Below are positions 1,033-58,813 of a DNA stretch of 64,000 nucleotides, piece by piece. The notes below the pieces were generated by a model. The model was not told the origin of the DNA. It made no database searches and saw only the letters and a list, made by a program, of their open reading frames with translations. Where the stretch lies: positions 12,916-76,915 of IMG/VR virus record IMGVR_UViG_3300044829_000002; one strand, written 5' to 3'. Each line of letters begins with the position of its first letter. The first letter of the stretch is position 1. The stretch is from a virus. Its lineage: Duplodnaviria; Caudoviricetes. The translations under genes and the position numbers were made by a program.

Positions 1033-1051
1033 TGTCGTGCTGAGTACGACA
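1033..1051. promoter_or_regulatory. palindromic operator TGTCG-N9-CGACA overlapping a minus-strand -10 (TAATGT); -35-like TGTACA 17 bp upstream
   Basis: tgtcg tgctgagta cgaca, intergenic, directly upstream of the HTH gene. Confidence 0.75.
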
Positions 1052-1065
1052 TTACAGCATGAAGG

Positions 1066-1096
1066 AGCCGGTGTACAGAGGGTCTGTACACCGGCT
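1066..1096. terminator. 14-bp stem hairpin containing the GTACAG-N5-CTGTAC palindrome
   Basis: agccggtgtacaga-ggg-tctgtacaccggct followed by a T run on +; just after the ArdC-like gene stop. Confidence 0.6.
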
Positions 1097-1110
1097 TTTG
1101 GCGGGTCGGC

Positions 1111-1509
1111 TCAGATAGCTTGGTCAGTCTGCGAGATATCGAACACCGACACCAGGCGGAAGAATTTACGACCCGGCTTGGCGTCCTCGCCGGGTGTGCC
1201 GTCCAACTCGACAGTTCCGGGGGTGCCAGCGGCGGAACCGGCCGGTGCGAGAATACGCATTCCGTGCTCGCCCTTGCGGACCTGACGGCCGACTTCCTGC
1301 CAAGCCTTGAATCCGCGAACCTCAACGGCTCCGGGCATCTGCATGGCGATCAAGGCGGCGTTGCGCTCGCTGTACTTGTCGGCCATGAGGGTGAACGTGC
1401 CGTCCTCGGGGTCCATCTCGTCCATGAATGAGTCGAGACGGTTGCGCAGTGCGAGAACTTCGGCATTCTTGTCGGTGATGCTGCGGCGGGTGCGGGTCTG
1501 TGCGGTCAT
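1111..1509 (-). CDS. ArdC N-terminal (ssDNA-binding, DUF1738-like) antirestriction protein
   Basis: YSERNAALIAMQMPGAVEVRGFKAWQEVGRQVRKGEHGMRILAP...FRLVSVFDISQT is the ArdC-N signature. Confidence 0.8.
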   Translation of the reverse strand: MTAQTRTRRSITDKNAEVLALRNRLDSFMDEMDPEDGTFTLMADKYSERNAALIAMQMPGAVEVRGFKAWQEVGRQVRKGEHGMRILAPAGSAAGTPGTVELDGTPGEDAKPGRKFFRLVSVFDISQTDQAI

Positions 1510-1536
1510 TTCTGGCTCCTAGTGCTGCTCGGCGGG

Positions 1537-1589
1537 TGTCGTGCTAGATACGACAGTACGCCGCCGACTTCTGTACAGTCAAGCTGTAC
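1537..1589 (-). promoter_or_regulatory. promoter (TTGACT-18-TACTGT) with TGTCG-N9-CGACA (1537-1555) and GTACAG-N5-CTGTAC (1573-1589)
   Basis: both palindromes and sigma-70-like elements read directly upstream of the ArdC-like gene. Confidence 0.75.
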
Positions 1590-1618
1590 GGCAGACCGAG
1601 TTTCAGACGGCGCTCGAC

Positions 1619-2989
1619 TCAGGACAAGGCGAAATTACGCGGCTTGCCCGTGCGCTTCAAGACAGGCCGATCTCCCGTGTGCATCTGCCACCGACGGCAC
1701 GTCATATCCACGTATGCCGGACTGATATCCATGCCCAGCGTGAACCTGCCCGACAGGTGCCCAGCGATCACAGTTGACCCGCTGCCGACGAACGGGTCCA
1801 GCACGAGATCGCCAGGGTCGGTGAAGCTGGCGATGAACCAGCGCGGCAACTCGACCGGGAACGTTGCCGTGTGGCCCATCGTCTCGCTAGACCCGGCCGC
1901 GATGTGCAGCACGTTGGATGGCAGCGCAATACCGGACTCGGTCTGATGCGGCCCGAGCAGTCCTGACGGCCCAGCACTGCCGCTACCGGGGGTGATCGCC
2001 TGCTCACTCGGTTTCGCATTCGCTTCCGGGTCGAACTTGATCTTGTCGGATCGGGTGAAGTGCCAGACCGATTCCCACGCGTCCTTGAACATGCTCGGGT
2101 ATCTGCCAGGCACGCCGTTCTTGGTGTCAACCCAGCAGAACTCATCCACGAACCGCCAAGCCCATTCCCTCACGTGAGCTATCACAAGATCATGCACATA
2201 CAAGTCGCGCTGGCCGTTGTCGGCGTGAGCCTTGATATTGACCAGCCACGAGCCGTCGTCGGCCAGCGCGGCGGCGACGTTGGTCTGCACAGCTTCAAAC
2301 CACGCCACGTACTCGTCAGGTGGGATCGGCTTGAACCCGCTGTCCTCGTCGTACTTGCGTTGACGGGCGTAGGGCGGGCTTGTGATCGCCAGATTCACTT
2401 TCTCGCCGTCGAGCAGCTTGCCCACGTCGTCGGCGTTGCGCGAGTCACCGCACATCACGAGATTGTCACCTAGCCGCCAGATGTCACCCGGCCGGGTAAT
2501 CACCGTGACCGACGCCGGTGGCAACTCGTCCGGGTCCAGCGGCGGTTCACCGTCGAACGGGTCGGCGTCACCGATCATCGCGGCCAGCTCGTCCTCGGTG
2601 AACCCGAGATCATCGATCTCGTAATCGTCCAGCGCGCTCAACTCGGTCACCGCCTCGTGTAGCTGCCCGGTGTCCCATTCGGCTAGCTCGGCGGTTCGAT
2701 TGTCAATGATGCCGTAAGCGCGAGCCTGATCCATCGTGCCGTCGAATATCTTGACGTCCACGTACTCGACATCTTCGGCCACGCTCGCCGCCAGCCAGCC
2801 GCTCCCGGCGATCACGATCCCGTCCGGCAGGATCACGATGTTTTTCTGCTGGCCGAACAGCCTCAGCGATGCCCTGATCGCGTCCATGTTGCGAGGGGGA
2901 TGCAAACGTACGTTGCGAGGGTCAGCCAACAGGTCAGCTACCCGTCGTGCCTCTAGCTTCATCTGGGGGCGTCGCGTCTTAGGGGGCAT
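1619..2989 (-). CDS. ParB/Srx-like N-terminal domain fused to beta-class DNA methyltransferase (likely N4-cytosine); true start may be 2962
   Basis: N-terminal PRNVRLH...IRASLRLFGQQKNIVI; catalytic TSPPY; HTATFPVELPRWFI; VLDPFVGSGST SAM motif. Confidence 0.9.
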   Translation of the reverse strand: MPPKTRRPQMKLEARRVADLLADPRNVRLHPPRNMDAIRASLRLFGQQKNIVILPDGIVIAGSGWLAASVAEDVEYVDVKIFDGTMDQARAYGIIDNRTAELAEWDTGQLHEAVTELSALDDYEIDDLGFTEDELAAMIGDADPFDGEPPLDPDELPPASVTVITRPGDIWRLGDNLVMCGDSRNADDVGKLLDGEKVNLAITSPPYARQRKYDEDSGFKPIPPDEYVAWFEAVQTNVAAALADDGSWLVNIKAHADNGQRDLYVHDLVIAHVREWAWRFVDEFCWVDTKNGVPGRYPSMFKDAWESVWHFTRSDKIKFDPEANAKPSEQAITPGSGSAGPSGLLGPHQTESGIALPSNVLHIAAGSSETMGHTATFPVELPRWFIASFTDPGDLVLDPFVGSGSTVIAGHLSGRFTLGMDISPAYVDMTCRRWQMHTGDRPVLKRTGKPRNFALS

Positions 2990-3016
2990 CCTCGCATTGA
3001 ATCACCCGAGACATGA

Positions 3017-3050
3017 CTAAGCCCCGTACCGGGGGAGATACGGGGCTTAG
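3017..3050 (-). terminator. putative intrinsic terminator (12-bp stem)
   Basis: ctaagccccgta-N10-tacggggcttag just downstream of the DUF932 gene. Confidence 0.6.
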
Positions 3051-3062
3051 CCGATCGGGGGG

Positions 3063-4070
3063 TTACTTGACGGCGAATTGCGCGAACGCGAGTTCCTTCA
3101 CGGTGCCGACGCGGTTGCGCGGCTCGGCGGAACGGGTCGCCCGGACGAGGTTCGCGTCACGCTTCGGGCCAACAGGCGTGAACCAGTCGAGGTATTCGGT
3201 GACGGCGTTGTAGCCCGCCCAGCGGGTGCCGCGAATGTTGGCCTGTGTGTCGGCGTCGGAGAACAGCTTGACCAGCTCGCCCTCGCGGCGGGCGTGAATA
3301 TTGACCGAGCGCGGCTTGGACTCGTCCTTCGGCACCGGCCAGATCAGGCGGGTTTTCTGGACGAACTGCGCCTCGCTCATCGGGGCCTGGATCATCTTCT
3401 CGGCCTCGGCCTCGAACGCACTGTCGAATTTGAACGTCAGGCCCAGCGCCCGACGGATCTCGGCGACGGCGAGCGTTGCCGACGATGTGTGCCGGACCTT
3501 GACCATCGACTTGTGATTGACGAGTGCGGCGCGCTCGGTGTTGCCGCACACGACGCGGACTGGGGTGTCGAGCAACAGCAGCGAGCCGGTGCCGTCGTGA
3601 TAGTTGAGCATCGTCAGATACCGGTTGAGCGCGTCCACGCCGCCGATCAGCATGTCCTCGCTCATCTTGGTCGTGACGAACACTGCACGCCCGCCTCGCA
3701 GCGAACCGGCTGTCTCGAACCGGCCGTTGGTTTGGCCCTTGATCGCGTCGAGGAGTTCAAGAGTCTGCTCGTTCTGGATCGGCTCCCAGACGCCGCCGAC
3801 GACGCCGAACGGCTCGCGGATCTTGGTGAACGGGTTGGAGCGGGACACGGCGTAGAACCCGTCAACGGGTGCGCCACGGTTGTCGAGCACGGGGGTGTCG
3901 TCGCGGCGTACACCCCAGCCGCCCAGGTGGCCCTCGTCTAGAACGTCGGCGGCGGTCAGGTCGCGGTCGAATGTGACACCGAGCCGATGCCAGGCCGGTT
4001 CGCGTGCGAATACGGCTGCGGATACGGTGCTGCCGTCTGCGTTCTGATGAGTCTCGATCTCGTGAGACAT
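3063..4070 (-). CDS. DUF932 family phage/plasmid protein (TIGR03299-like)
   Basis: PAWHRLG, YxPIQNE-like WEPIQNE, FETAGSLRGGRAVF, NYHDGTGS, TPVRVVCGNT, GTRWAGYNAVTEYLDW; RBS GAGAGGGAG. Confidence 0.85.
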   Translation of the reverse strand: MSHEIETHQNADGSTVSAAVFAREPAWHRLGVTFDRDLTAADVLDEGHLGGWGVRRDDTPVLDNRGAPVDGFYAVSRSNPFTKIREPFGVVGGVWEPIQNEQTLELLDAIKGQTNGRFETAGSLRGGRAVFVTTKMSEDMLIGGVDALNRYLTMLNYHDGTGSLLLLDTPVRVVCGNTERAALVNHKSMVKVRHTSSATLAVAEIRRALGLTFKFDSAFEAEAEKMIQAPMSEAQFVQKTRLIWPVPKDESKPRSVNIHARREGELVKLFSDADTQANIRGTRWAGYNAVTEYLDWFTPVGPKRDANLVRATRSAEPRNRVGTVKELAFAQFAVK

Positions 4071-4103
4071 GGTGACTCCCTCTCGGGGTGGCGTGCGACC
4101 CGG

Positions 4104-4148
4104 TGTCGCACTAGACACGACACTAGTCGCACCCTCTGACAAGAGTCA
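4104..4148 (-). promoter_or_regulatory. promoter TTGACT-18-TAGTGT, also TGTCAG-N10-TAGTGT, with operator 4104-4122
   Basis: read directly from the sequence upstream of the DUF932 gene. Confidence 0.75.
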
Positions 4149-4171
4149 ACATGCTAGCTCGCAACTACAGC

Positions 4172-4327
4172 TCACCAGTAGTGATTACGCCCGCCGATCT
4201 CGTGGCCGGTCGAGCCAGCCAGCAAGAGAACAGCACCGAGCGCGGCCAGCACGAGGCCGATGATGAACAGCAAGTGGATGCCGAACAGCAAGCCCACGAT
4301 GAGCAACACGATACCTAACACAATCAT
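4172..4327 (-). CDS. DUF6131-like small membrane protein (51 aa; not in the ORF track)
   Basis: MIVLGIVLLIVGLLFGIHLLFIIGLVLAALGAVLLLAGSTGHEIGGRNHYW; two TM segments and GGRxHYW end; RBS GAGGAG. Confidence 0.75.
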   Translation of the reverse strand: MIVLGIVLLIVGLLFGIHLLFIIGLVLAALGAVLLLAGSTGHEIGGRNHYW

Positions 4328-4590
4328 AACGTCTCCTCTAGCTGTGCCCGTATCTGTTCACTGGTCGCCGCATTCGCCTGAATCGCGGCAGCCTGCCTTT
4401 GCTGACCGTACTTGACGATCTGTTGCCGCGTCCAGAGTGGTGTGCTGCCGTAGCGGACTGTCTCGGGCGGGAACGGGACACGTGCTGTGCCGTTCCGGGT
4501 GCGTTCCCGGATTTTGTCGATCGTTTTCAGATTCACACCGAGCAGCTCAGCTACGGCAGCTCGGTCGAGTAGTTGTCGCCGCTCAGTCAT
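4324..4590 (-). CDS. AlpA/excisionase-like HTH protein
   Basis: LLDRAAVAELLGVNLKTI...FPP...YGSTPLWTRQQI. Confidence 0.7.
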   Translation of the reverse strand: MTERRQLLDRAAVAELLGVNLKTIDKIRERTRNGTARVPFPPETVRYGSTPLWTRQQIVKYGQQRQAAAIQANAATSEQIRAQLEETL

Positions 4591-4603
4591 GCACGTCCCC
4601 TTC

Positions 4604-4756
4604 CTAGTCGCCGGTCTGCTCGGCGTCGGCAGTCGCGCCGTCGGCCGGGAGACTGTAGCGGTCCCACGCCCAGCGCAGCACCCGGCCCTTGGCGTCCTGA
4701 TCCAAGTCCTCGATCGTTCTTACGATCTTGCTCATTGCTTGCAGCTCACGGTCCAC
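4604..4756 (-). CDS. hypothetical protein (50 aa; not in the ORF track)
   Basis: GTG start after RBS AAGGGAGG; VDRELQAMSKIVRTIEDLDQDAKGRVLRWAWDRY... Confidence 0.55.
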   Translation of the reverse strand: MDRELQAMSKIVRTIEDLDQDAKGRVLRWAWDRYSLPADGATADAEQTGD

Positions 4757-4770
4757 AGCAATCCTCCCTT

Positions 4771-4808
4771 AGTCGTGTCGGGCGCGACACTACCGTGTCA
4801 ACCCGACG
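4771..4808 (-). promoter_or_regulatory. promoter CGTCGG-N10-TAGTGT with operator AGTCG-N9-CGACA (4771-4789)
   Basis: read directly; intergenic. Confidence 0.6.
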
Positions 4809-4877
4809 CCGTGCATCAACACATGCAGATGCCCGCCGGGATCGACGGGCATCTGTCTCGCGCAAGTCGGGCGTCTG

Positions 4878-5297
4878 TTACGCGCTCCTCGCTCCTGAGA
4901 GATTCCGTATCGTGTTCCGCCCCGGCTGGACCGAGTCTTGGTACTTGGACGGTCGCGCAACCCGTGCAGGATTCGCCTTGGCCTTTTCCTTCACGACCGC
5001 ATTGGCAATCACCAACTCAAACTGGAACGCCCGCACCGCTTTCTTGCCCTTGCTGTCCAGCAAGTTGAGCCACCGGGCAATCCGGGGTGGCGTGACGAGT
5101 CGATAGCGTTGTCCGGCAACGCTCCATGCGATCTGCTTGGTTGTCACTCGCACACGCGACGCCTCGGTGCCGTCTGTAGCGTCAAGATCACGAGCTATCG
5201 CGTATGCGATGGGGCAGTGCCACTCGTTGTTTACCTGCGCTGCGTTGATCGCGTCGGTGTTGACCTTGATCGTGTAGTTCTCTTGCATTGCTCTCAC
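4878..5297 (-). CDS. hypothetical protein
   Basis: fills the space between neighbours; CPIAYAI motif; RBS-like GAAAGAG. Confidence 0.6.
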   Translation of the reverse strand: MRAMQENYTIKVNTDAINAAQVNNEWHCPIAYAIARDLDATDGTEASRVRVTTKQIAWSVAGQRYRLVTPPRIARWLNLLDSKGKKAVRAFQFELVIANAVVKEKAKANPARVARPSKYQDSVQPGRNTIRNLSGARSA

Positions 5298-5312
5298 TGT
5301 TCTCTTTCGGGG

Positions 5313-6119
5313 TTAGACCGCTCGCAGATGCGTAGCAGTCTTGGCGGGTTTGCTTTGGTCGAGTTCCTTTAGCCGTCGGAAGATCACGTGCGCGTCACGG
5401 GAGTATTTATCCAGCCGGTCCAGCTCACTCCATGACAGGTGCCCGAGATCACTGACACCTAGACCGTCGATGATTGGGCGCGTCTCATCCATGAGATCCC
5501 TCAGCACGTGCAGCACGTGCAGAACCTTTATCAGCTTCGGCGTAAGACACTCGCCAGTCTGTTCCTTGACCAGCCCTTTGATCACTGACGCCGTGGGCTT
5601 GCCGTCCGTCTGTTTAAGCGTCTGCTCCCACACGCCAACCATCAGATCCGGGTCAGCTTGCAGCGCGGACAACTGCCGTTTCTGCTCCCTTGTTTGCGGT
5701 GCCGGTAGATCAGGCCGCTTAGCCTCGACAATGTCCGCGACATCCTTGTGTGCGTCCTCCTCCTTAAATGCCGCCTCGAACACCTCCGGTGGGATCTCCT
5801 CCGGCGGCGTCTCATCAGCGGCAGCACCGTACGTCTCTACGTCGGACGGCTTAAGTGATGACGCTGGCTTGGCGTCCTCCAACTCGCCCCACGCTTTCAG
5901 ATGCCGCAGCACACGGGGCACAGTCTCGCCGGACTCACGAGCGAACTCGCTGGCGCTGGTCTTACCGGAAACTTTACGTTCGTTAAGTTGCGCGGCGGTT
6001 GGTCGGCCGTTGTGCGGCTTCTCCACCGAGCAGGCGACGAGCAGCGCCAGCCTCACGTCCCTGCCTTGTTTGATCAGCGCGCCGAACTCGTGCGCGTTGT
6101 CTTGCCATGTGCGGGTCAT
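5313..6119 (-). CDS. conserved actinophage protein, possibly DNA-binding
   Basis: MTRTWQDNAHEFGAL start; VWEQTLKQTDGKPTASVI helical motif; strong RBS GAGGAGGAAGG. Confidence 0.7.
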   Translation of the reverse strand: MTRTWQDNAHEFGALIKQGRDVRLALLVACSVEKPHNGRPTAAQLNERKVSGKTSASEFARESGETVPRVLRHLKAWGELEDAKPASSLKPSDVETYGAAADETPPEEIPPEVFEAAFKEEDAHKDVADIVEAKRPDLPAPQTREQKRQLSALQADPDLMVGVWEQTLKQTDGKPTASVIKGLVKEQTGECLTPKLIKVLHVLHVLRDLMDETRPIIDGLGVSDLGHLSWSELDRLDKYSRDAHVIFRRLKELDQSKPAKTATHLRAV

Positions 6120-6137
6120 ACCTTCCTCCTCGGGTGG

Positions 6138-6175
6138 TGTCGTGTCGAGTACGACGGTAACAGAACCGGCCGACT
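6138..6175 (-). promoter_or_regulatory. promoter AGTCGG-N10-TACCGT with operator TGTCG-N9-CGACG (6138-6156)
   Basis: read directly; intergenic. Confidence 0.6.
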
Positions 6176-6187
6176 AACGGAAGTGCG

Positions 6188-6655
6188 CTAACCCGTTGAT
6201 GGGCACGCAGGCACCAGTGACGACAAGTTGGACGGGCTTACCGCGTAACCGGGGAACCACGCCCAAATGATCGGCGTGTTCGGCCCGTGAGTCCGCGTCC
6301 TGACCTTGTACCAATACGAATTGCCGTTCATCGAACTACCCAAAGTCCAGCAGCGGCCCATCATCCCCGTCACGGGGTACACGCCGTAATCGTCACCCTT
6401 GGACCAGCCGTAGAACACGTAACACGGGTCCGACGTCGGCCGGAGTCGAGCTGAGACTTTGGTCGTGATGTTCGCCAGCGAGTAGTAATTCCAGTCCCGG
6501 TCGTAGGCCAGACCGCGCGTGCCGCACCCGGCCGGACTGACACGAGTCAGATCACGGCCGACGCCGTGGCCCTTGGCTGTGTAGGCCGACGCGGGCGGGC
6601 CGGTGAACAGCGTTGCCACTAGGGCCAGCGTCAGAATGATTACCAGTTTCCTCAT
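6188..6655 (-). CDS. secreted protein (Sec signal peptide)
   Basis: MRKLVIILTLALVATLFTGPPASA signal with AxA cleavage site; four Cys in the mature part. Confidence 0.7.
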   Translation of the reverse strand: MRKLVIILTLALVATLFTGPPASAYTAKGHGVGRDLTRVSPAGCGTRGLAYDRDWNYYSLANITTKVSARLRPTSDPCYVFYGWSKGDDYGVYPVTGMMGRCWTLGSSMNGNSYWYKVRTRTHGPNTPIIWAWFPGYAVSPSNLSSLVPACPSTG

Positions 6656-6672
6656 GATCGTTTCCTCTCGGG

Positions 6673-12597: not shown

Positions 12598-13818
12598 TCA
12601 CACGCGAGTGCTGGCGTTGCTCAGGGAGCCACTGAGTTGGCCGTCGCCATGTCGATCCTCGCGTGATCCATTGCCGAGTTCAGCAGCCGCAGCGCATTTG
12701 CGAGTGCCCTGCGCTATCTGATAGGCGTCATTCCATGCCTCCCAATAAACGTCCGCGTGATCTCGCAGGCGCAATTGCTCGGCAACGTCGCGGCCAGCAG
12801 CGGACAACTCGGCCCGCAGCCCCGCATCACGGACAAGTCGCGTCAGTTGTTCGTGCCATTGCTTGGCGCTGCCAGCCAGCAACCCAGCGCCCATGTCGTG
12901 CAGCCGTTTGTATTCAGCACGCGGGGACGCGACCCAAGGCACGCCGCACGCTGACATTTCGAGTGGCTTTAAATGAGACTTACGTGCGTTAAAGGTCGTA
13001 TCGGCCAACGGAGCGATGCCGACTCCGATGGTGGCAACAGCGTCCGGCCAGCGCAGCAGCGACACCTTCCCGGCCGCTGGCGGATCGGCAGTCAGGCCGA
13101 ACGCCTTGCCGACACCGATCGCGTCCTCACCGAACCCGAGAAACGACGCGCTCCTGTTCTCAGCCAGCACGCGGCGCAGCGCCGAGCCGACAATCTCCGG
13201 GTCATGCGGATGTGAATGCAGCACGGCAGGCCAGCCGATCATGGTCGAGTCGCGCCGCTCGTGACCGTAGTAATGATCGGCCAGATAGTTGGGCAGCACA
13301 CGCCCCGGCTTGCCGTCGCGTGCGTAGCGATGCAACAACCCCGATGTCGAGACTGTGACCAGCGTGGCATCCCGGCATGCCCGCAACAGGTTCTCCCATG
13401 TGTGCGGCACCGGCTGAATCGCATTCAGCCGTTCCACCATCGCCGCTAGCTGTGGCCCGCGATAGCCCTGACGCAGCAGCGACTCTCGATGCATGTCCGG
13501 GTGAACCAGCAGCCACGCCGCATTGTCCGGGTCGATTGAGGACAGATCGTCATCCACATCAACCACGCAGGCCACGCCGCGTTCAGCCAGCAGCGCGGGC
13601 ACTTGGCACAGCAGCCGATGCGTCGGCCGTTGCAGCACGATCACGTCGGTGCCGTCGGGCACGGTCACGTCCGTGACGACATCACCGGTTACTTCGATGG
13701 TGAGTTTGCCGTCGGCGATAACGACGTCATGACCTTGTGCCGCTAATGTCTGTCCAGGCCATATCAGCCTGTGATGTCCACACCCGTACGAATCGGCCGG
13801 ATACAGCACTACGCGCAC
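12598..13818 (-). CDS. glycosyltransferase, GT-B fold (GT4-like)
   Basis: GCGHHRLIWP, VIVLQRP, VVDVDDD, GIAPLADTTFNARKSHLKPLEMSACGVPWVASP. Confidence 0.85.
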   Translation of the reverse strand: MRVVLYPADSYGCGHHRLIWPGQTLAAQGHDVVIADGKLTIEVTGDVVTDVTVPDGTDVIVLQRPTHRLLCQVPALLAERGVACVVDVDDDLSSIDPDNAAWLLVHPDMHRESLLRQGYRGPQLAAMVERLNAIQPVPHTWENLLRACRDATLVTVSTSGLLHRYARDGKPGRVLPNYLADHYYGHERRDSTMIGWPAVLHSHPHDPEIVGSALRRVLAENRSASFLGFGEDAIGVGKAFGLTADPPAAGKVSLLRWPDAVATIGVGIAPLADTTFNARKSHLKPLEMSACGVPWVASPRAEYKRLHDMGAGLLAGSAKQWHEQLTRLVRDAGLRAELSAAGRDVAEQLRLRDHADVYWEAWNDAYQIAQGTRKCAAAAELGNGSREDRHGDGQLSGSLSNASTRV

Positions 13819-26358: not shown

Positions 26359-27935
26359 GTGCCGTCCTCCTCTCCGCTGATCATGCCACTACGACGCCCG
26401 GATATGATGCCGCTCGGCTCGCTCCCCGCACCTTGCAACACAGGCTCTCTGCCGTGTATCCGTATCCGCTGCGGCAGCAACAGCAGGTAGTTGTTGACAC
26501 CTGGTGTCGGGATGGTGACAAGCACCGGGATGCGGACAGCGCCGACAGTCGAGCCTGCACCGGCAGTCGGGGTTGGGATGGTGACGATCACCGCGACGAC
26601 AACTGCCGACACGTTCACACCGGCACCCACGGCCGGAGTCGGGATGCTGGTCGTGATCGGCGTGACGCTCTTGCTGACGTTCGCGCCGCCGCCGACAGTC
26701 GGCGCCGGGATGGTGACGATCGAGACGACGCTGGCTGGTCGAGTTGGCACGCTCACTGTCGGCGCCGCAATGGTGGTCGAGATCGCCACCACTGCCGCGT
26801 TGACGTTCGCGTTGCCGGACGTACTGACATTCGGTGTCGGGATGGTGGTTGCGACAGGAACGGCGACGGCCTGCACACCGGCTCCGGTCGCCACCGGCGG
26901 CGTCGGGATGGTTGTCGATATCGGGACAACTGTCGAGCTTGCGTTCGCGGCACTGCTGATCACCGGCGTCGAGATGGTGACCGCGCTGGCAACGACGGTG
27001 GCTGTGGCGGTCGCATTCGATATGGCGGTCACGCTCGGCGTCGGAATCGCCGTCGTGACAGCTACGGCAGTTGCGTTGATGTTGGCGTTACCGGCAGTGC
27101 TGACCGACGGCGTGGGGATCGTGACGACGATCGGCACAACGGTCGCGGCGACCGTGACTCCGATCGATACTGCCGGAGTCGGGATGCTGGCCGAGTTGGC
27201 GACCACAGCAGCGGTGATGCTCGCGTCGCTGCTGATCGTCGGCGTCGGCACGGCGACAGCTACAGCGACCTTGCCGGGCGTTGCGGTCGCGTTCGACGTG
27301 ACGCTGACTGCCGGAGTCGGGATCGCTGTGGCAACAGCGACCACGCTGGCGCTGACGTTCGCGTTGCCTGCGGTACTGACCGAGGGTGTCGGGATGGTCA
27401 CCGGCACTGTGACGACGCTGACGGTTACCGTGCTGCCGACGCTGATTTGAGGAGCTGGGATTTGCGTCGAGCATGCGACGACGGTGGCGCTGATTGCCGC
27501 GCTGGATGTGACGGTCGGTGTCGGGATCGTCGTAACGATGGGGACAACTGTCGCTGCTACGGTCTCGCTAGTTGCGACTGCTGGAGTCGGGATGGTTGTA
27601 ACGACGGGAACGACCGTTGCCGTGGCGGTCGCGTTCGAGGCCGCGCTGATCGTCGGAGTCGGGATCGTAGTTGGTACGGCGACGACGGTTGCGGCTGCGT
27701 TCGCGGCGCTGGTCACGATAGGTGTCGGGACGGTAACCGTGACAGCGACTACCGTGGCTGGGACCGTGGCGTTGCTGGTGACGCTGACTGCTGGTGTCGG
27801 GACCGTGACGGCTGTCGCCACAACAGCGGCGCTGGCTGTGGCGTCAGACTGTGTGGTGACTGGCGAGATTATGCGGGTCGGCTGACGGTCCTGATCAGCC
27901 TGTCGAGGCGTGCCGTAACGGATGAGCCTAGCCAT
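26355..27935 (-). CDS. Thr/Val/Ala/Pro-rich repeat protein (20 x ~23 aa, core TIPTP)
   Basis: 20 copies of (T/A/S)(I/V)PTP-like core counted in the translation; GREP C-terminal motif. Confidence 0.85.
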   Translation of the reverse strand: MARLIRYGTPRQADQDRQPTRIISPVTTQSDATASAAVVATAVTVPTPAVSVTSNATVPATVVAVTVTVPTPIVTSAANAAATVVAVPTTIPTPTISAASNATATATVVPVVTTIPTPAVATSETVAATVVPIVTTIPTPTVTSSAAISATVVACSTQIPAPQISVGSTVTVSVVTVPVTIPTPSVSTAGNANVSASVVAVATAIPTPAVSVTSNATATPGKVAVAVAVPTPTISSDASITAAVVANSASIPTPAVSIGVTVAATVVPIVVTIPTPSVSTAGNANINATAVAVTTAIPTPSVTAISNATATATVVASAVTISTPVISSAANASSTVVPISTTIPTPPVATGAGVQAVAVPVATTIPTPNVSTSGNANVNAAVVAISTTIAAPTVSVPTRPASVVSIVTIPAPTVGGGANVSKSVTPITTSIPTPAVGAGVNVSAVVVAVIVTIPTPTAGAGSTVGAVRIPVLVTIPTPGVNNYLLLLPQRIRIHGREPVLQGAGSEPSGIISGRRSGMISGEEDGT

Positions 27936-49538: not shown

Positions 49539-49758
49539 CCTCGATCTCCGCTCGTGCGTTCAGCCACGGTGTGCCCTGTGCCCGGAGTTGCCGCAACCAC
49601 GCGAACAGCGCGCCGGAATGATCTTCCAGTGCCTCGTCGCGTATCCACGCCAGCGTCATCAGACATGTTTCGCAGACGAACTCGGTGCGAAACTCGATCG
49701 CATTGTGTACCAGCACCGCCGAGTGCGACCACGGCGCGCACGTCTCACCCTTGACCAT
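49522..49758 (-). CDS. hypothetical protein
   Basis: CxxC motif; overlap pattern. Confidence 0.45.
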   Translation of the reverse strand: MVKGETCAPWSHSAVLVHNAIEFRTEFVCETCLMTLAWIRDEALEDHSGALFAWLRQLRAQGTPWLNARAEIEDDTDN

Positions 49759-49948
49759 GAGCGGACTGAGTCAGGTCGCTCAGCTCGGCCACCCGAAATC
49801 GCACGGTGGTCCGGTGCTTGACCGGGTCGTAGTCGGCCTCGACGGCGACGGCGAACGCCTGATAGTTCAGCGGTCCCATCACCGCACCGATCACGGTTTC
49901 TCGGACGTCGCCCCGGTACTTGGCGTTTCCAGGCAGTAACGCTGTCAT
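49745..49948 (-). CDS. hypothetical protein
   Basis: RBS AAGGAG; own promoter/operator upstream. Confidence 0.6.
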   Translation of the reverse strand: MTALLPGNAKYRGDVRETVIGAVMGPLNYQAFAVAVEADYDPVKHRTTVRFRVAELSDLTQSAHGQG

Positions 49949-50759: not shown

Positions 50760-50761
50760 GA

Positions 50762-52899: not shown

Positions 52900-53210
52900 A
52901 TCTGTAGGTATTCCAGCCAGTCGTCCACGCGTTGCGCGTGGGCTTTCACGATGTCGGCCAGGCTGTAGATCTCGTTCACAATGTCGGAGTCGTTAGACAC
53001 AGGGATCATCTGACCGGCATCGGCAATACCTGATGGGAGTGGCTGCTTGATAGTGGCGAGTGCTGGACGGAGTCGGCCTGCCAGTGTCTCCAATTGCGAC
53101 CCGTGCTGTTCGATCACCACGGCGAGATCTCGCAGCGCAGTCTCCAACCGACCACCGTGAGCAGTTGTGAGACTTGGGTCGTGCTTGATCGTTTCCTGTG
53201 CTTCCCTCAT
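52896..53210 (-). CDS. hypothetical coiled-coil protein
   Basis: RBS AAAGGA; helical. Confidence 0.55.
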   Translation of the reverse strand: MREAQETIKHDPSLTTAHGGRLETALRDLAVVIEQHGSQLETLAGRLRPALATIKQPLPSGIADAGQMIPVSNDSDIVNEIYSLADIVKAHAQRVDDWLEYLQI

Positions 53211-53230
53211 GATGCAATTCCTTTCCTAGA

Positions 53231-53464
53231 TCAGATCCATGCAGGCAGTGACCCGATGGTGTCCATAAGATCGCTCAGGAACTTCTCGGCCTGAGCCTGA
53301 GTCATGTTCACGCCGTCCTCCCACCACAAAGTCGTGATCGGCGTACCAGCCTGATCACGGCCCAACACCACGTAGTAGCCGGGATTGTTCACATCGGCCG
53401 CGACGTCCATGCTGTACACCAGATCGAGATTGACCCACGCCTGACTCTTATCCTTGATCCACAT
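53231..53464 (-). CDS. hypothetical protein
   Basis: ATG at 53464 after GGAAGG. Confidence 0.55.
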   Translation of the reverse strand: MWIKDKSQAWVNLDLVYSMDVAADVNNPGYYVVLGRDQAGTPITTLWWEDGVNMTQAQAEKFLSDLMDTIGSLPAWI

Positions 53465-54125
53465 TTCGCGTCGCCTTCCACTCGTTGATTTGCCGGACGC
53501 TGCGGGCGAGCCCGTTTTGGACAGGTGCGCTTTCCCACTGACTCGGGGAGCTTTGCCTGATGCGGCCTTCCCTGTACGTGTCGTCATCGTTGCAGCCTGT
53601 CATGTCAAACCGATCATGCCGAACCTGCACGTCCGGCAGGTATTGGATCGTGCCGGTCAGTCGGCCTACTTCCTGCCAATACGTGTCGCAGTGCTGCGTG
53701 TAGGGACTCATGCCGCCGACAACCTCAATGGCCTCGCGGCGGATCACGGGGAAGGTGCACAGCATGGGTGAGTGCCCTTCGCTGTACAGATCCGCGACCA
53801 AGATGTTGGCCGGTAAAGCCTCGATCACAGCGTCCCATCCAGGGGTGAGCATCACGGCATCGTCATTCCAGAGCATGATCCAATCACCAGATGCCCGCGC
53901 GGCTAGCGCGTTGAAATATTCATTCAGTCGCGCATAGCCGTAACGCTCAGGGGCCACCCACACGGAATCGAAAGGCTCACGCACACACCGCGACGGCACT
54001 TCATCGTCAGGGTCCAGCGCTAGCAGTATCTCAAGATCCCCTACATCGCTGGTCGCAATCAGAGACGCTAGCGACCGTTCCAGCAACTCAGGCCGCTTTC
54101 GCGTCGGCACCAGTACCGAGATCAC
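53448..54125 (-). CDS. glycosyltransferase family 2
   Basis: ISVLVPTRKRPELL..ALDPDD..MLWNDDA..HCDTYW. Confidence 0.85.
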   Translation of the reverse strand: MISVLVPTRKRPELLERSLASLIATSDVGDLEILLALDPDDEVPSRCVREPFDSVWVAPERYGYARLNEYFNALAARASGDWIMLWNDDAVMLTPGWDAVIEALPANILVADLYSEGHSPMLCTFPVIRREAIEVVGGMSPYTQHCDTYWQEVGRLTGTIQYLPDVQVRHDRFDMTGCNDDDTYREGRIRQSSPSQWESAPVQNGLARSVRQINEWKATRNVDQG

Positions 54126-54316
54126 GACGCCGCCTTTATTGCGTGTGCCCGTCGTGTATTCCGCTGCTGCTCACTAGCTGTTGCCCAGCGAACGTTACCT
54201 GGCTCGTAGTTACCGTCGTTATTGATCCGGTCGAGCGCGGGTGTCGGCGGTATCCTCGTTAAACTCAACACAACCCAGCGGTCAAATCGGTCGCCGGGTT
54301 CAACCACAAGCGGCAT
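54122..54316 (-). pseudogene. internally deleted HNH homing endonuclease remnant (64 aa)
   Basis: N-terminal GDRFDRWVVL joined almost directly to C-terminal LDRINNDGNYEPGNVRWATASEQQRN. Confidence 0.65.
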
Positions 54317-55025
54317 TGATTGCCTCCTGTAATCGTGCTGCATCCTTGACCCGTTGGGGTGCCAGATCTCGGTAGAGTTGGTCAACATTGTCTTGCACGT
54401 GTCGAGCCAGCCGATCTTGATGAGTCTGATCCCACTCACCTTTACCTGCAATCGGGTGCATGTGTTCGATGTACACCTCAGGCAGATACACCCGACGCTG
54501 AATCATATCTGCCATAGTGCTTAAGTAAGTGTCGTTGTAATCTGACGAGAAATATGGCGGCATGAAGTAGCCCAGCGCATTAACCCATTGCCGACTGTAG
54601 AACCCGAGCGTTGCCATACCTGCGTTCATGATGCCGTCCCGGCCGTGCACGCAGGCGATGCCGTCAGGGAAGCGGCGGAACCCTTCCCGGATCTCCATGT
54701 CCCAGCGCATGGATCGGAAGATCACATCATCGTTTCCGTGCCAAAGTATCTGGCCGGTGGCGAGTTTGTAACACTCGTTCCACGTCTGAGACAACAGGAT
54801 GCGCGGACCCAGCGCTGCGCGATAGTTGTCAGGCAGATCGTCGGCGCGAGCCGGACGCATCATTGTGTCGTCATCCTCGTCCACGTAGATAATCAGTTCC
54901 AGCAGCTCCGGGTGTACAGCGGTGCCGCGAGCTGAGTCCCACATGAGTTTGAGCTGGCCCGGTCGGCCGCGGGACGGCACTAGCAGGCTGATCTTCCAGT
55001 GCCAGTCGTCCCATTCAGGATTCAC
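54300..55025 (-). CDS. glycosyltransferase family 2
   Basis: ISLLVPSRGRP..YVDEDDD..GNDDVIF..YFSSDYNDT..IEHMHP. Confidence 0.85.
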   Translation of the reverse strand: MNPEWDDWHWKISLLVPSRGRPGQLKLMWDSARGTAVHPELLELIIYVDEDDDTMMRPARADDLPDNYRAALGPRILLSQTWNECYKLATGQILWHGNDDVIFRSMRWDMEIREGFRRFPDGIACVHGRDGIMNAGMATLGFYSRQWVNALGYFMPPYFSSDYNDTYLSTMADMIQRRVYLPEVYIEHMHPIAGKGEWDQTHQDRLARHVQDNVDQLYRDLAPQRVKDAARLQEAINAACG

Positions 55026-55168
55026 TTGATCGTCCTCGTCAATGTCCGGCGTACGCCGTGCTGTATGGCATCGTGCTCCAACGCTCGGCGGCAGCGCGGG
55101 CACCGGGCATCATGGCCGTTCTTTACCCGGCCGATGTCCTCGTGACACTCCGGGCATGCAAGCCTCAT
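55022..55168 (-). CDS. small zinc-ribbon protein
   Basis: MRLACPEC...CPRC. Confidence 0.55.
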   Translation of the reverse strand: MRLACPECHEDIGRVKNGHDARCPRCRRALEHDAIQHGVRRTLTRTIK

Positions 55169-55410
55169 TGCATGCTCCCCGGCAGGATCAGGCCGGTCTT
55201 GGCCCGTGTGCTGGCACCGGAGATCAACTGTGCTAGCTGCGGCGCGTCCTCGCCGTTCAGGAACGTGACGAACTTCCCGGTGCATGTGGTGATAGTGATC
55301 ATCACCCACGCGGACCCGTCCGGGCCTGCCACGGGGTCCACCCGCCAGTTGGTCTGGGTCGGCTGCACCGGTATCTCATTCGACGGCACAGCGCCGTTAG
55401 GTGCGGTCAC
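55165..55410 (-). CDS. hypothetical protein
   Basis: overlap pattern with neighbours. Confidence 0.55.
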   Translation of the reverse strand: MTAPNGAVPSNEIPVQPTQTNWRVDPVAGPDGSAWVMITITTCTGKFVTFLNGEDAPQLAQLISGASTRAKTGLILPGSMQ

Positions 55411-55574
55411 TGGCGGTCGCTCATGGTCGGCACGCTGATGAACGACGCGGCCCAGAAAGCCAGCCCGAGATACAGGTAGCTCAGCGGGTGATCGTTGACG
55501 GTTGGTGCGTCAACCGCGAATGCGGCGAGCAGGAAGCTGATGACAGCGGCTAGGAGTAGCACGAATCGGAGCAT
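55407..55574 (-). CDS. small membrane protein (55 aa; not in the ORF track)
   Basis: MLRFVLLLAAVISFLLAAF...YLGLAFWAASFI; RBS AAAGGA. Confidence 0.6.
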   Translation of the reverse strand: MLRFVLLLAAVISFLLAAFAVDAPTVNDHPLSYLYLGLAFWAASFISVPTMSDRQ

Positions 55575-55603
55575 GATCGGTTCCTTTCAGAGAGAGAGGG
55601 GGC

Positions 55604-55879
55604 TTACGGTCTTAATGGTCGCGGTGTTACTCGGCGGTATATCACCAGAGTCTCGGGGGTGCAGTCGGCGAACACCACCGTCCCGTCCTCAGTGCGAGCC
55701 ACAACCCAGTCGGCACCCATCGCCTCCACCCGCTTGGGTGAGTAGGAATCTCTGCCGAACCATCCGCCGCAATAGGCGTCCGGCTCGTCGCCTTGATGTG
55801 CTTGGCCGAGCCAGTCACCGACCCGCAGCGGCGGCTGGATCTGCGCGTTCACTTGGACCGTGGCAATTGCTTCACCCAT
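55604..55879 (-). CDS. hypothetical protein
   Basis: GGWFGRDSY..KRVEAMGADWVVAR motif; RBS. Confidence 0.65.
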   Translation of the reverse strand: MGEAIATVQVNAQIQPPLRVGDWLGQAHQGDEPDAYCGGWFGRDSYSPKRVEAMGADWVVARTEDGTVVFADCTPETLVIYRRVTPRPLRP

Positions 55880-55892
55880 GATCAGTTGCCTT

Positions 55893-56672
55893 TCATGACA
55901 CGGTGCGGATCAGCCAGAAATCGTCGGACAGGTCAGGGTTGGTCAGGTACGCGAGCGGCATCCAGTAATACCCGTTCTCACCCCAGTGCGGACCCCACGA
56001 GTTGCGGACCCGGATGAGCGGCTGACCGCCGAGCATGACATAGCCGACGGCGACAACAGCGTGCCCGCCTAGCAGCCGTTCACCGGCACCGGGCAGCGGC
56101 ACCAGCCCGCCAGCTTGCATCGGGAAGGACTCGTACACGCTGAACCCGAATATCACCGGGTGGCCGTCGGCAATGGCTCGCCTGATCCCCGAACGGCGAA
56201 CCTTGGCGTAGGAGTTGGCCTTGGTTTCACCGGCGAGCGCGTAGGCGTGACTGTTCGGCTTGATAGCGAATGAGCCGATGTCGTACGGCCAGGCGTGTTC
56301 GGGCGGCGCGCCGATCTTGTGCATGACCTTGATGCCGTCCCGAATGTAGGCCCCGGCATCCTCTCCGATGCTGTGCTCCATCCACCGCTCGTAGTAGTAG
56401 ATGAACAGTCGGGAGGGTGTGAAGTCCGGTTCCGGCTGGCGGTTCAGGTCGAACTCGACCACTGCGGCGATCGCGTTGGCGGTACAGCTTCCGAGCGCGC
56501 CTTGGTCGTAGCACTCCGGCATGGCCGGGTCGAGATCAAGTCGGGTCTCCGGTGGCAGCTTGCGTCGGCTGGCCTTGTAGGGCACGTCACGGATATCGGG
56601 GAGATCGGGTCGCCAGCCGAACCGCTCACCGCTCGGTCCCTGCTCGGGTCGAATCCGCAGATCGGATGCCAT
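55893..56672 (-). CDS. papain-family (C1) cysteine protease
   Basis: DQGALGSCTANA (Gln, Cys); SRLFIYY; GGHAVVAVGY (His); VRNSWG..WGENGY (Asn). Confidence 0.9.
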   Translation of the reverse strand: MASDLRIRPEQGPSGERFGWRPDLPDIRDVPYKASRRKLPPETRLDLDPAMPECYDQGALGSCTANAIAAVVEFDLNRQPEPDFTPSRLFIYYYERWMEHSIGEDAGAYIRDGIKVMHKIGAPPEHAWPYDIGSFAIKPNSHAYALAGETKANSYAKVRRSGIRRAIADGHPVIFGFSVYESFPMQAGGLVPLPGAGERLLGGHAVVAVGYVMLGGQPLIRVRNSWGPHWGENGYYWMPLAYLTNPDLSDDFWLIRTVS

Positions 56673-56746
56673 GCGCGCACGATATCCCGACAGGTATGAC
56701 TAACTCACTCACGATCACTCTCGGGGGGTCGATCTGGCAGCCGAGC

Positions 56747-56798
56747 GTACAGCGTTGCTGTACAGCAGATGAGTTACCGTGTCGCATCCAGTACGACA
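56747..56798 (+). promoter_or_regulatory. GTACAG-N5-CTGTAC (56747-56763) plus TGTCG-N9-CGACA (56780-56798), mirror orientation
   Basis: intergenic, between terminase and protease genes. Confidence 0.65.
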
Positions 56799-56807
56799 AG
56801 TGACCCG

Positions 56808-58238
56808 TCAGCCCCGCCAGCCGGTCAGCGAGCGACCAGCCACGCTCTTGCCGGGTAGCCTGCCCATCGTGTTCGCCACCGTCGAAACCAGCTTCTCGTG
56901 CCAAGCGGGCCAGACCATCGCATCCATCCGGTCAGGCGAATCGGCGTCCGACGAGTCCTCCCATGTACACAACTCGTCCTCCAACTCCTCATGCGTCCCG
57001 ACATGGGGATAGCGGCCCCGAGCTGCCATAGACGACACAGGGAAGGCACGTGCCCGCTTGTTGCCGATCGCACGGGCCAGCGCCGGTTCGATCGGGATCA
57101 ACAGACCCGCCGCGTTAGCCGCGCCGACGATGACCGACTTAGGCATGTCCCGGCCATAGTCGGACTCGAATACGATGCCGTCGGCGTCCCAGTCCATCGC
57201 CGCATCGATGACTTGCTTGCCCCACCCGGCCGGGTCTTTACGGCACGTGTAGTCGGCCAGCACGAATCCCCGGTGAAGTGGTGTCTTGTACAGCGGCTCA
57301 CCCTCGAATGTCGGTCCGTCATCCCAGCCGCGCTTGGAGAACCCGATCACTACAATCCCCTGTTTACCAGCACCACCCGACGGGTCCACGCCCACGATGC
57401 GACGCTGCAACAGATCCAGCGGGAACGCATTGACGTCGATGCGGTACTTGGCTATCTGCGCTCGCTGCCACAGCGCGTGCGCGGTCTGCTCGACAATGCG
57501 GCCTTCCAGCTCTTGCTCACCTAGCGCGGTGCCGCCGTACATGCCCGTGACCGTTTCCAAGAATTCCGCCGACAGATGCGGATTGTCGGAGGTTCGAGCA
57601 TGCGTACGGACGACACCGGCGAGTTGGCCTTTGTCGATTTTCTTGATCAGCTCACGTGGACGCGGTGTCGTGGTGGCGATCCAGTGCGCGTTCGGTGTCT
57701 CACGCAAACCCATGATCATCATTGACCAGGCGTAGTCGAGCCAGCGCCACGCGGCCAACTCCTCGGCCCACACGAGGCACGTGTTACCGCCAGACCGCAG
57801 CGAGTCGCACGCCTCCTCCGTGTTGGTGCCGTACATCTTGGCCTGCGACCCGTTGGGCCATTTGACGAGCGTGCCTTCGCGGCCGGTGATGATCCGCGCC
57901 GACGAGTCGTAGCGCCTGATGCCGGTAGCGCCCTCGACGCACGACGTCACTGCATCGGATTGGGTCGGCGCGATAATGCCCATCAAGTGCGGGTGCGGGC
58001 CGGTCAGGCATGGCGGGCCTTTGACATGCGCAATCATGTGATTGGCCCCGGCAGCAGTCTTGCCGATGCCTCGCCCGCCGAACAGCGCCCAGCCGCGCCA
58101 GCGGCCTGGCGGTGCGATCTGATGCGGCTCAGGCTTCCACACATTGATCTTGATATCAGAGTCGAGCCTGCGCGACATGGCCCGCACGAACGCGTTACGA
58201 TCCTCCGGTTCAAGATCACCTAGCGCGTCGAGTGTCAT
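56808..58238 (-). CDS. terL: terminase large subunit
   Basis: GGRGIGKT Walker A; VWAEE Walker B; ATTTP motif; VGVDPSG and SPDRMDA nuclease motifs. Confidence 0.95.
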   Translation of the reverse strand: MTLDALGDLEPEDRNAFVRAMSRRLDSDIKINVWKPEPHQIAPPGRWRGWALFGGRGIGKTAAGANHMIAHVKGPPCLTGPHPHLMGIIAPTQSDAVTSCVEGATGIRRYDSSARIITGREGTLVKWPNGSQAKMYGTNTEEACDSLRSGGNTCLVWAEELAAWRWLDYAWSMMIMGLRETPNAHWIATTTPRPRELIKKIDKGQLAGVVRTHARTSDNPHLSAEFLETVTGMYGGTALGEQELEGRIVEQTAHALWQRAQIAKYRIDVNAFPLDLLQRRIVGVDPSGGAGKQGIVVIGFSKRGWDDGPTFEGEPLYKTPLHRGFVLADYTCRKDPAGWGKQVIDAAMDWDADGIVFESDYGRDMPKSVIVGAANAAGLLIPIEPALARAIGNKRARAFPVSSMAARGRYPHVGTHEELEDELCTWEDSSDADSPDRMDAMVWPAWHEKLVSTVANTMGRLPGKSVAGRSLTGWRG

Positions 58239-58255
58239 GGCCTGTGAACTCCTAG

Positions 58256-58813
58256 TTAGATGTCACAGACTATCTCCGGCGTGTGAATCAACTGGCACCA
58301 CGAAACTCGCCAGTCATCGAGGAACATGCGCTGTCCGGCGGCGAGAGTGAGTTGGCCGTACCGCACCATGCTCGACACCTTGGCCTCTAGCTGGTCCTTG
58401 TGATTGTGCGTGTACGCGGTCTGGCGCAGTCCGTCGGCCGGTTCGGGCCAGATGTTGGCCGCGTCGTTGCCGCCGCACAGACTGAACGGCACTCGGTGGT
58501 CGAACTCGACGTGAGTCAGCCCGGACGGGCCGAACCAGCCGTAGGCGGCAGTCACCTGGCTACGGGTCGCAGCGGTGACGCCTCGCTCGCTGGCCGGACG
58601 GGGAATGTGGCAATTCACAACCGAGCCAGGTGTCCGATGTTGATCAGGTACCGGCCAGACAGAGGCGCGTCCAGTCGGTGTCGTACTAGGTACGACTAGG
58701 GTAGGGGTTGGCCCCGCTGAGTGCGTCACTGGCGGGTTTTCATGACGTCCCGCTGTGCTCGTACAGGCAGACAGGGTGAGGATTGTTAGCAGTGCGATCA
58801 GCGCTCGTCTCAT
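58256..58813 (-). CDS. lipoprotein with HNH-like nuclease domain
   Basis: MRRALIALLTILTLSAC lipobox; TPG..EFDHRVPFSLCGGND..NIWPE..NHKDQLE. Confidence 0.75.
   Translation of the reverse strand: MRRALIALLTILTLSACTSTAGRHENPPVTHSAGPTPTLVVPSTTPTGRASVWPVPDQHRTPGSVVNCHIPRPASERGVTAATRSQVTAAYGWFGPSGLTHVEFDHRVPFSLCGGNDAANIWPEPADGLRQTAYTHNHKDQLEAKVSSMVRYGQLTLAAGQRMFLDDWRVSWCQLIHTPEIVCDI
58679..58697. promoter_or_regulatory. intragenic operator-like TGTCG-N9-CGACT
   Basis: tgtcg tactaggta cgact, encoded with rare codons GTA CCT AGT. Confidence 0.4.

Follow-up and report, generated by a model that had tools for sequence, protein, structure and literature searches.

What reads a palindrome that recurs between the genes of a phage, and what does it do there? 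This question is raised by IMG/VR virus record IMGVR_UViG_3300044829_000002, one contig of 76,915 bp that is bounded by direct terminal repeats and is estimated to be 100% complete, in which the palindrome TGTCG-N9-CGACA (hereafter P1) had been described in an earlier note on a 64,000-nt stretch. This stretch, the window, covers genome bases 12916-76915; its positions are prefixed with w, positions of the whole contig are called genome positions, and the remaining 12.9 kb is termed L001. Transcription in actinobacteriophages is poorly understood, and most of their repeated motifs, such as the Cluster O repeat, are without an assigned function. The present genome is an unusually clean case, with a palindrome in fixed register to the predicted -10 hexamer of most early promoters, only a few candidate binders to choose from, and another palindrome at constant spacing. 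P1 is real, well defined and almost certainly regulatory, and is probably the operator of a dimeric regulator that shuts off early and middle promoters.

The window holds five exact copies of TGTCG-N9-CGACA (w1033, w1537, w4104, w12365 and w56780) against 0.28 expected, and none of 100 shuffled windows reached five. In the whole 76.9-kb genome there are eight, the extra three lying at genome 2640, 4531 and 12642. All coordinates given in the earlier note were right, including those of the one-mismatch copies (w4771, w6138, w6673, w23080, w34690, w49967 and w58679). Allowing up to one mismatch yielded 15 matches against 5.2 expected, and the one-mismatch class therefore holds noise. Sites were then defined by a symmetric weight matrix as matches scoring at least 18.3 bits; 16 sites were obtained in the whole genome, including two with two mismatches that the matrix scan added (genome 11341 and w63691), with a clear gap below them, as the next match scored 15.4 bits and was genic. 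Leave-one-out scores were at least 16.8 bits for all 16 sites. In first-order Markov genomes, 0.03 matches scored at least 18 bits and 0.44 scored at least 15 bits. Fourteen of the 16 sites are intergenic, and intergenic DNA makes up only 6.8-9.2% of the genome; the enrichment between genes that had been foreseen for this motif is thus borne out. The other two are w63691, which shares bases with the final codons of the gene before it, and w58679, which probably lies in the linker of an open reading frame (ORF). The listed copy at w34690, scoring 10.3 bits, is probably not a site, and the copies at w36900 and w42156 were discarded as chance matches (genic, low score).

The full P1 element reads TGTCGYRY-N3-RYRCGACA, a 19-mer with 8-bp half-sites and a 3-bp centre, and its alignment on the coding (minus) strand is TA-n-TGTCG-Y-A-Y-Y-n-R-R-Y-R-CGACA-C. 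A dimeric binder is suggested because the 14 sites from which the logo was drawn show no variation in either pentamer, and their half-sites are two-fold symmetric around the centre. Twelve of the 16 sites lie in the non-structural arm of about 25 kb, where they fill 12 of the 19 listed intergenic gaps. The sites are listed below; class I sites carry a -10-like hexamer overlapping or abutting the upstream arm, and class II sites have no such overlap.

w1033-1051, minus strand: exact P1, best score (27.8 bits); class I, hexamer TAATGT; 23 nt before the ATG of an 87-amino-acid helix-turn-helix (HTH) gene
w1537-1555, minus strand: exact P1; class I, TACTGT; -35 box TTGACT 18 bp upstream; before the ArdC-N-like gene 1111-1509
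w4104-4122, minus strand: exact P1; class I, TAGTGT; -35 box TTGACT; TGTCAG at -26; before the DUF932 gene 3063-4070
w4771-4789, minus strand: one mismatch; class I, TAGTGT; CGTCGG at -26; before genes for a 50-amino-acid protein, an 88-amino-acid MerR/Xis-type HTH protein and a DUF6131 protein
w6138-6156, minus strand: one mismatch; class I, TACCGT; AGTCGG at -26; before the 268-amino-acid DUF6192-like gene 5313-6119
w6673-6691, minus strand: one mismatch; class I, TAGCGT; before the gene of a secreted 155-amino-acid protein, 6188-6655
w12365-12383, minus strand: exact P1; class II; perfect 7+7 palindrome; 59 nt before the YqaJ exonuclease/RecT operon
w23080-23098, minus strand: one mismatch; class II; tail-gene region; paired with a second palindrome (P2) at w23115
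w49967-49985, minus strand: one mismatch; class I, TAGTGT; before the 67-amino-acid gene 49745-49948 in the glycan-gene region
w56780-56798, minus strand: exact P1; class II; directly past the large terminase stop codon; P2 at w56747; before a papain-like peptidase gene
w58679-58697, minus strand: one mismatch; 24.4 bits; TACCCT before it; probably in the Pro/Thr-rich linker of a lipoprotein/HNH-like ORF
w63691-63709, minus strand: two outer mismatches; class I, TACCGT; 13 nt before the ATG of gene 63276-63677
genome 2640, 4531 and 12642: exact P1, class I; the site at 12642 with a -10 overlap
genome 11341: two outer mismatches; class II
w8999-9017, minus strand: doubtful weak copy, 13.2 bits, intergenic
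w34690: doubtful copy, 10.3 bits, intergenic; probably no site

The ORF that holds the site w58679 (w58256-58813, minus strand) is a single frame combining a lipoprotein signal peptide (lipobox LSAC), a Pro/Thr-rich linker with the P1 site inside it, and an HNH-like domain.

At each of the 11 class I sites (genome 2640, 4531 and 12642; w1033, w1537, w4104, w4771, w6138, w6673, w49967 and w63691), a -10-like hexamer overlaps or abuts the upstream arm. The dinucleotide TA occurs exactly 3 and 2 bp before P1 in 9/16 sites, where the last three bases of TAn(T/C)GT are also the first three of the palindrome, and on the mirror side in 0/16; given a genomic TA frequency of 2%, the binomial probability of 9/16 is about 6e-12. 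A TAnnnT hexamer lies 0-2 bp further upstream at three more sites, and a -35 box (TTGACT or TAGACG) precedes four sites by 17-18 bp. All 11 class I sites are followed, 9-33 nt on, by a Shine-Dalgarno sequence and a start codon. The minus-strand -10 overlap claimed previously for w1033, w1537, w4104, w4771, w6138, w6673 and w49967 was confirmed at the level of the hexamers, and was also seen at genome 12642 and w63691. A promoter scan of the E. coli type was uninformative. The distance from the -10 hexamer to the start point at actinobacterial SigA promoters is usually 6-7 nt; with this spacing, the predicted +1 falls at motif positions 9-11, which are mostly purines, and the operator would span about -9 to +10. 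The predicted start thus lies in the middle of the palindrome, and the transcript would hold the right arm only. Class II comprises genome 11341, w12365, w23080 and w56780, which have longer palindromes (7-9 bp arms). The site w58679 fits neither class cleanly: its upstream arm directly adjoins TACCCT, which is also the case at genome 4531, yet a ribosome-binding site and start codon are missing downstream. The earlier description of a genome-wide regulon spanning early, recombination, tail and glycan genes is overdrawn, as most sites lie in the non-structural arm and w23080 (tail region) and w56780 (after the terminase gene) lack the -10 overlap.

Starting from the observed motif, its statistics, its placement and register, its asymmetry and the gene content around it, we infer protein binding and its sign and timing as follows. 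P1 would be built into the core promoter of about 11 SigA-type promoters of non-structural genes, reaching to about +10, and a bound dimer would occlude the -10 hexamer and the +1 position from RNA polymerase, turning early and middle operons off together. A block of both the -10 hexamer and the start point is suggested because the first three bases of P1 are the last three of the hexamer. Most likely, P1 would thereby serve to end early and middle transcription at a set time in lytic growth, or to keep it in check by negative feedback. The repressor and the autoregulation proposed in the earlier note are, like this scheme, inferences.

Three of the P1 promoters carry a further element. On the minus strand, (T/C/A)GTC(A/G)G stands exactly 10 nt upstream of TAnnGT, matching the consensus of promoters dependent on PafBC, tGTCgg(N10)tA(N3)T, in which PafB reads the GTC triplet (PMC8635444).

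w4120-4141, minus strand: PafBC-type -26 element of the promoter with P1 at w4104
w4787-4808, minus strand: PafBC-type -26 element of the promoter with P1 at w4771
w6154-6175, minus strand: PafBC-type -26 element of the promoter with P1 at w6138

These three phage promoters may be activated by the DNA-damage regulator of the host. PafBC promoters and P1 promoters have in common a GTC element and a TAnnnT -10 hexamer (PMC8635444), but P1 itself lies downstream of the -10 hexamer and is palindromic, and PafBC is an activator. P1 was rejected as a PafBC/WYL box, as it is located at about -9 to +10 and not at -26 and no WYL domain is encoded; a phage-encoded WYL regulator was ruled out by a six-frame search.

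The same fixed register could also be explained by positive control, in which P1 belongs to a phage-specific core promoter and a phage factor recruits or re-programmes the host RNA polymerase, as at middle-gene promoters. The fusion of P1 to the -10 hexamer would suit such a factor, as would the many P1 sites without a good -35 box; the phage WhiB-like protein could act on SigA, and the PafBC-type -26 elements indicate that activator-dependent promoters exist in this genome. Two equally invariant symmetric halves are nevertheless unlike the asymmetric contacts of polymerase and sigma factors, activators rarely bind from -10 to +10, and four P1 sites, perfect ones included, are without any -10 hexamer. 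On balance, we regard activation through P1 as rather improbable.

A host protein could also be the reader. A WYL-/PafBC-like or another GTC-reading dimer of the host would then bind P1, and the phage would tie its early genes to a host signal. TGTCG does hold the GTC triplet read by PafB (PMC8635444), PafBC-type elements lie upstream of three P1 promoters, and the phage itself offers candidate binders only. However, the strict pattern TGTCGYRY-N3-RYRCGACA was found in 16 of 401 Actinomycetes genomes (17 sites), compared with 12 for a reversed control, whereas the phage has 7 copies in 77 kb; the sample of genomes may not include the host. A count at control level means that P1 is no common actinobacterial regulon. 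Moreover, the known WYL boxes lie upstream of the -10 hexamer (PMC8635444), unlike P1, and the phage has no WYL gene. Reading by a host regulator is accordingly judged to be of low probability. P1 is not known to correspond to a LexA, CRP or other actinobacterial box, and these readings were rejected. A scan of IMG/VR with one exact P1 variant returned 43 single chance matches and no multi-copy contig, the sole apparent double lying within coding sequence.

Could the palindrome act in the transcript rather than in the DNA? As a stem-loop of the 5' untranslated region, it would serve mRNA stability, processing or translation; every site would be transcribed in sense if upstream promoters read through, and the class II hairpins are the better ones, at -6.9 to -13.7 kcal/mol. 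The class I hairpins mostly have 4-6-bp stems and 7-9-nt loops, with -3.2 to -5.8 kcal/mol at 8/11 sites and energies about 1-3 standard deviations below shuffled sequences. Positions Y5 and R13 are pairable in 9/16 sites, the exact expectation under column independence, and among the eight sites at which the outermost pair varies, six lose pairing, one has a wobble and one is compensated; it is the sequence that is conserved rather than the pairing. No Rfam match was found anywhere in the genome, no T-run follows the P1 sites, and the predicted start point would halve the stem. Because of the weak hairpins and the lack of covariation, of an Rfam match and of a T-run, recognition of DNA sequence is favoured over RNA pairing, an intrinsic terminator or structured RNA was rejected, and a role as an RNA element is very improbable.

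A second palindrome, P2 (GTACAG-N5-CTGTAC), accompanies P1 at part of its sites. Four exact copies and one with one mismatch were found, all intergenic.

w1073-1089: P2, centre 39 bp from P1 w1033
w1573-1589: P2 surrounding the -35 box TTGACT, centre 35 bp from P1 w1537
w23115-23131: P2, centre 34 bp from P1 w23080
w56747-56763: P2, centre 34 bp from P1 w56780
L001:11308-11324: P2

The distances between P2 and P1 centres are 34, 34, 34, 35 and 39 bp, with P2 on either side of P1, and a P2 partner is present 34 bp away at three of the four class II sites. This arrangement suggests that P1 and P2 form a composite element. The class II sites and the P1-P2 pairs may serve as roadblocks, or as composite sites in which a second factor takes part. 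A depletion of GTAC, as a possible restriction signature, was not seen.

The nature of the phage bears on which kind of regulator is to be expected. A six-frame Pfam search of the complete genome detected no Phage_integrase (tyrosine integrase), no Resolvase (serine recombinase), no Cro/CI-type HTH_3 and no WYL domain. The lack of an obvious CI in the window, noted earlier, thus extends to the complete genome. This uncultured phage of actinobacteria appears obligately lytic. A lysogeny (immunity) repressor system was rejected, as Phage_integrase, Resolvase and HTH_3 are all missing from the genome. Because integrase, resolvase, HTH_3 and WYL genes are lacking, P1 is unlikely to control lysogeny and is better explained as the site of a regulator of the lytic programme; a temporal regulator of the lytic cycle is more likely than an immunity repressor.

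The regulator that would bind P1 is most likely phage-encoded, and the following proteins were considered.

w746-1009, minus strand: 87-amino-acid protein with a helical hairpin and an HTH, RelI/Rv2664-like; leading candidate
w4324-4590, minus strand: 88-amino-acid MerR/Xis-type HTH protein (phrog_597, E 1.5e-8); alternative candidate
w9032-9421, minus strand: 129-amino-acid protein with an N-terminal Cys/His cluster and a C-terminal sigma region 4-like HTH, by translation only; alternative candidate
w5313-6119: 268-amino-acid DUF6192-like protein; candidate
w60903-61304: WhiB-like protein

The best candidate is the 87-amino-acid protein, the gene of which lies directly behind the best-scoring P1 site (w1033), itself paired with P2. 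The earlier suggestion that w746-1009 encodes an HTH protein proved sound: the C-terminal half matches RelI/Rv2664 of M. tuberculosis (PDB 9sdc; E 1.5e-5 with a three-sequence profile), and the homology extends across the long second helix and the C-terminal HTH. Only two homologues exceed 60% identity (61-66%), but a profile search assigned the protein to a family of 208 clusters of 80-125-amino-acid proteins, commonest in Actinomycetota and in some cases from phages. An AlphaFold2 model from a 68-sequence alignment reached a mean predicted local distance difference test (pLDDT) score of 95.7, with a hairpin at residues 4-24 and 26-52 and an HTH at 64-71 and 75-82; an earlier model from 3 sequences had been poor (pLDDT 53). 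Foldseek with this model gave no significant match in the PDB and only weak HTH matches (sigma region 4 and TetR N-terminal domains). RelI, a putative HTH protein, forms dimers by way of its long second helix and is the antitoxin of RelS (PMC13284704); the 87-amino-acid protein shares this helix and the C-terminal HTH. Unlike RelI, which is paired with RelS, the phage gene has no RelS-like toxin gene next to it. A RelS-RelI toxin-antitoxin pair was rejected, the neighbours being an ArdC-N-like gene and an HNH ORF and neither encoding a RelE/BrnT-like toxin. As the binder, the protein would be autoregulated, because its own promoter holds the best-scoring P1, and it would limit its own synthesis. 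From position and homology, we tentatively put it forward as the P1 binder.

The sole relative of the 87-amino-acid protein in IMG/VR (39% identity) is encoded one gene downstream of a different 30-bp palindrome, TCCTGCAGG...CCTGCAGGA (L056:2763-2792), which is followed by a ribosome-binding site and an ATG. This palindrome may be a cognate operator of different specificity.

With regard to the other proteins, the WhiB-like protein is not expected to read a palindrome, and the 129-amino-acid protein (w9032-9421) gave no family match. The 88-amino-acid protein is a less natural fit, because a phage D29 protein of its MerR/Xis type binds direct repeats and not palindromes (PMC12266134).

Several observations weigh against an operator that shuts off promoters and is read by the 87-amino-acid protein. 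Four P1 sites are without promoter overlap, seven listed intergenic gaps of the non-structural arm have no P1 site, and the predicted -10 assignment leans on the loose consensus TAnnnT. As to the binder, several other HTH proteins are equally placed as candidates, and RelI acts as an antitoxin in M. tuberculosis (PMC13284704). Shut-off by a dimeric regulator nevertheless remains the probable function of P1. The combined scheme, in which a lytic phage would shut at least 11 early operons with a RelI-like dimer at an operator merged with the -10 hexamer, with P2 34-35 bp away at some of them and with three promoters both damage-activated through PafBC and phage-repressed, is unlikely to hold in all its parts. 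Neither the layered design of early promoters nor DNA binding by the RelI family has been described before, and both would be new if true. The phage could supply a compact repressor with its operator as a tool for controlling genes in actinobacteria, and the RelI/Rv2664 family of small HTH proteins could gain its first function in DNA binding.

How does this system compare with those already described? Phage regulators with dispersed palindromic operators are a known kind, the C1 operators of bacteriophage P1 and the conserved inverted repeats of phiC31 being examples besides those treated below; the site sequence is new. The element described here conforms to this kind, as it is repeated far above chance (16 versus 0.03) and enriched between genes. 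Its closest analogue, judged by likeness, is the 17-bp repeat TGTTCGG-N3-CCGAACA of the Cluster O mycobacteriophages (Corndog and relatives), which is present more than 30 times, with about one copy in three falling within genes (PMC4351075). Both are multi-copy palindromes with 7-8-bp arms and a 3-bp centre, found mainly in short gaps between genes of the non-structural arm of actinophages without an integrase, and both are thought to be bound by a dimeric protein. In the Cluster O phages, as in the present phage, sugar-transferase genes stand among those for head assembly, beside the portal gene, and the terminase gene is displaced (PMC4351075). P1 was rejected as a Cluster O repeat because the arm sequences differ; moreover, the Cluster O repeat lies mostly away from promoters and a transcriptional role was judged unlikely for it, whereas the 16 copies of P1 lie almost entirely between genes and are in most cases joined to a predicted -10 hexamer.

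The comparison with Cluster O also leads to a non-transcriptional reading, in which P1 would serve recombination, delimit modules, or bind a protein that acts in the nucleoid, in partition or in replication. For their own repeats, the Cluster O authors described indels lying between copies and were sceptical about control of transcription (PMC4351075); in the present genome, P1 sites mark the starts of gene cassettes and homing endonuclease genes are abundant. A boundary or partition role leaves the exact -10 register and the upstream-only TA asymmetry unexplained, and such a function is highly unlikely.

Two further systems resemble the proposed operator of a dimeric regulator in part. Repressor gp33 of mycobacteriophage BPs has the 12-bp operator CGACATATGTCG (PMC4557955), which like P1 contains the pentamers CGACA and TGTCG and is repeated several times in short stretches between genes, with one copy covering the early lytic promoter; its arms, however, are reversed in order and separated by 2 bp instead of 9. 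BPs is temperate with integration-dependent immunity, whereas the present phage has no gp33-like (HTH_3) gene. In Cluster A, the repressor binds many stoperators across the genome and controls promoters and downstream transcription (PMC9283540, PMC6550527). One regulator with many sites spread over the genome is common to Cluster A and the scheme proposed for P1, but the stoperators are asymmetric, 13-14 bp long, monomer-bound and oriented with transcription in temperate phages. P1 was rejected as a stoperator, being a two-fold symmetric 19-mer.

The genome around these sites has a GC content of about 62%, and a gene call based on codon usage placed 128 of 133 genes on the minus strand. In the direction of transcription, small genes come first, followed by the large terminase gene, sugar genes, the portal gene, head and tail genes including the tape measure gene, the non-structural arm and, last, about 40 small genes in L001.

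w56808-58238: large terminase
w38079-39893: portal

About 15 kb of sugar-metabolism genes come after the large terminase gene and ahead of the portal gene. The non-structural arm encodes a YqaJ exonuclease, RecT, a GIY-YIG protein, an O/DnaD-like replication initiator, a DUF932 protein, a ParB-fused DNA methylase and an ArdC-N-like protein. No tRNA gene was found in the complete genome. The nearest portals of GenBank phages belong to Gordonia phages and share only 32% identity; megablast, blastn and tblastn detected nothing closer among GenBank phages, and no nucleotide-level relative. Scans of IMG/VR with RecT, the 87-amino-acid protein homologue and the family alignment returned no relative or a single one at 39%; scans of metagenomes returned none or DUF932 relatives at 28% only, and scans of bacterial genomes none or one 39% DUF932 relative in Saccharopolyspora.

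Three minor features of the genome were also observed. Between the terminase and portal genes, in the region w38079-58238 that includes both, lie about 17 kb of glycosyltransferase and sugar-modifying genes. The region w26355-27935 is rich in repeats, and the codon-usage score there favours the plus-strand ORFs 26512-27450 and 27484-27885 over a 526-amino-acid minus-strand ORF; the GC skew switches to +0.10 in this region, and the strand assigned to this 'mucin-like' gene is tentative. HNH/AP2-HNH-like ORFs, in unusually large number, and one GIY-YIG endonuclease ORF are scattered among the conserved genes, at the following positions.

w273-821: HNH/AP2-HNH-like or GIY-YIG ORF
w8004-8630: HNH/AP2-HNH-like or GIY-YIG ORF
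w10774-11235: HNH/AP2-HNH-like or GIY-YIG ORF
w47777-48157: HNH/AP2-HNH-like or GIY-YIG ORF
L001:4761-5402: HNH/AP2-HNH-like or GIY-YIG ORF
L001:6279-6782: HNH/AP2-HNH-like or GIY-YIG ORF
L001:9542-9898: HNH/AP2-HNH-like or GIY-YIG ORF

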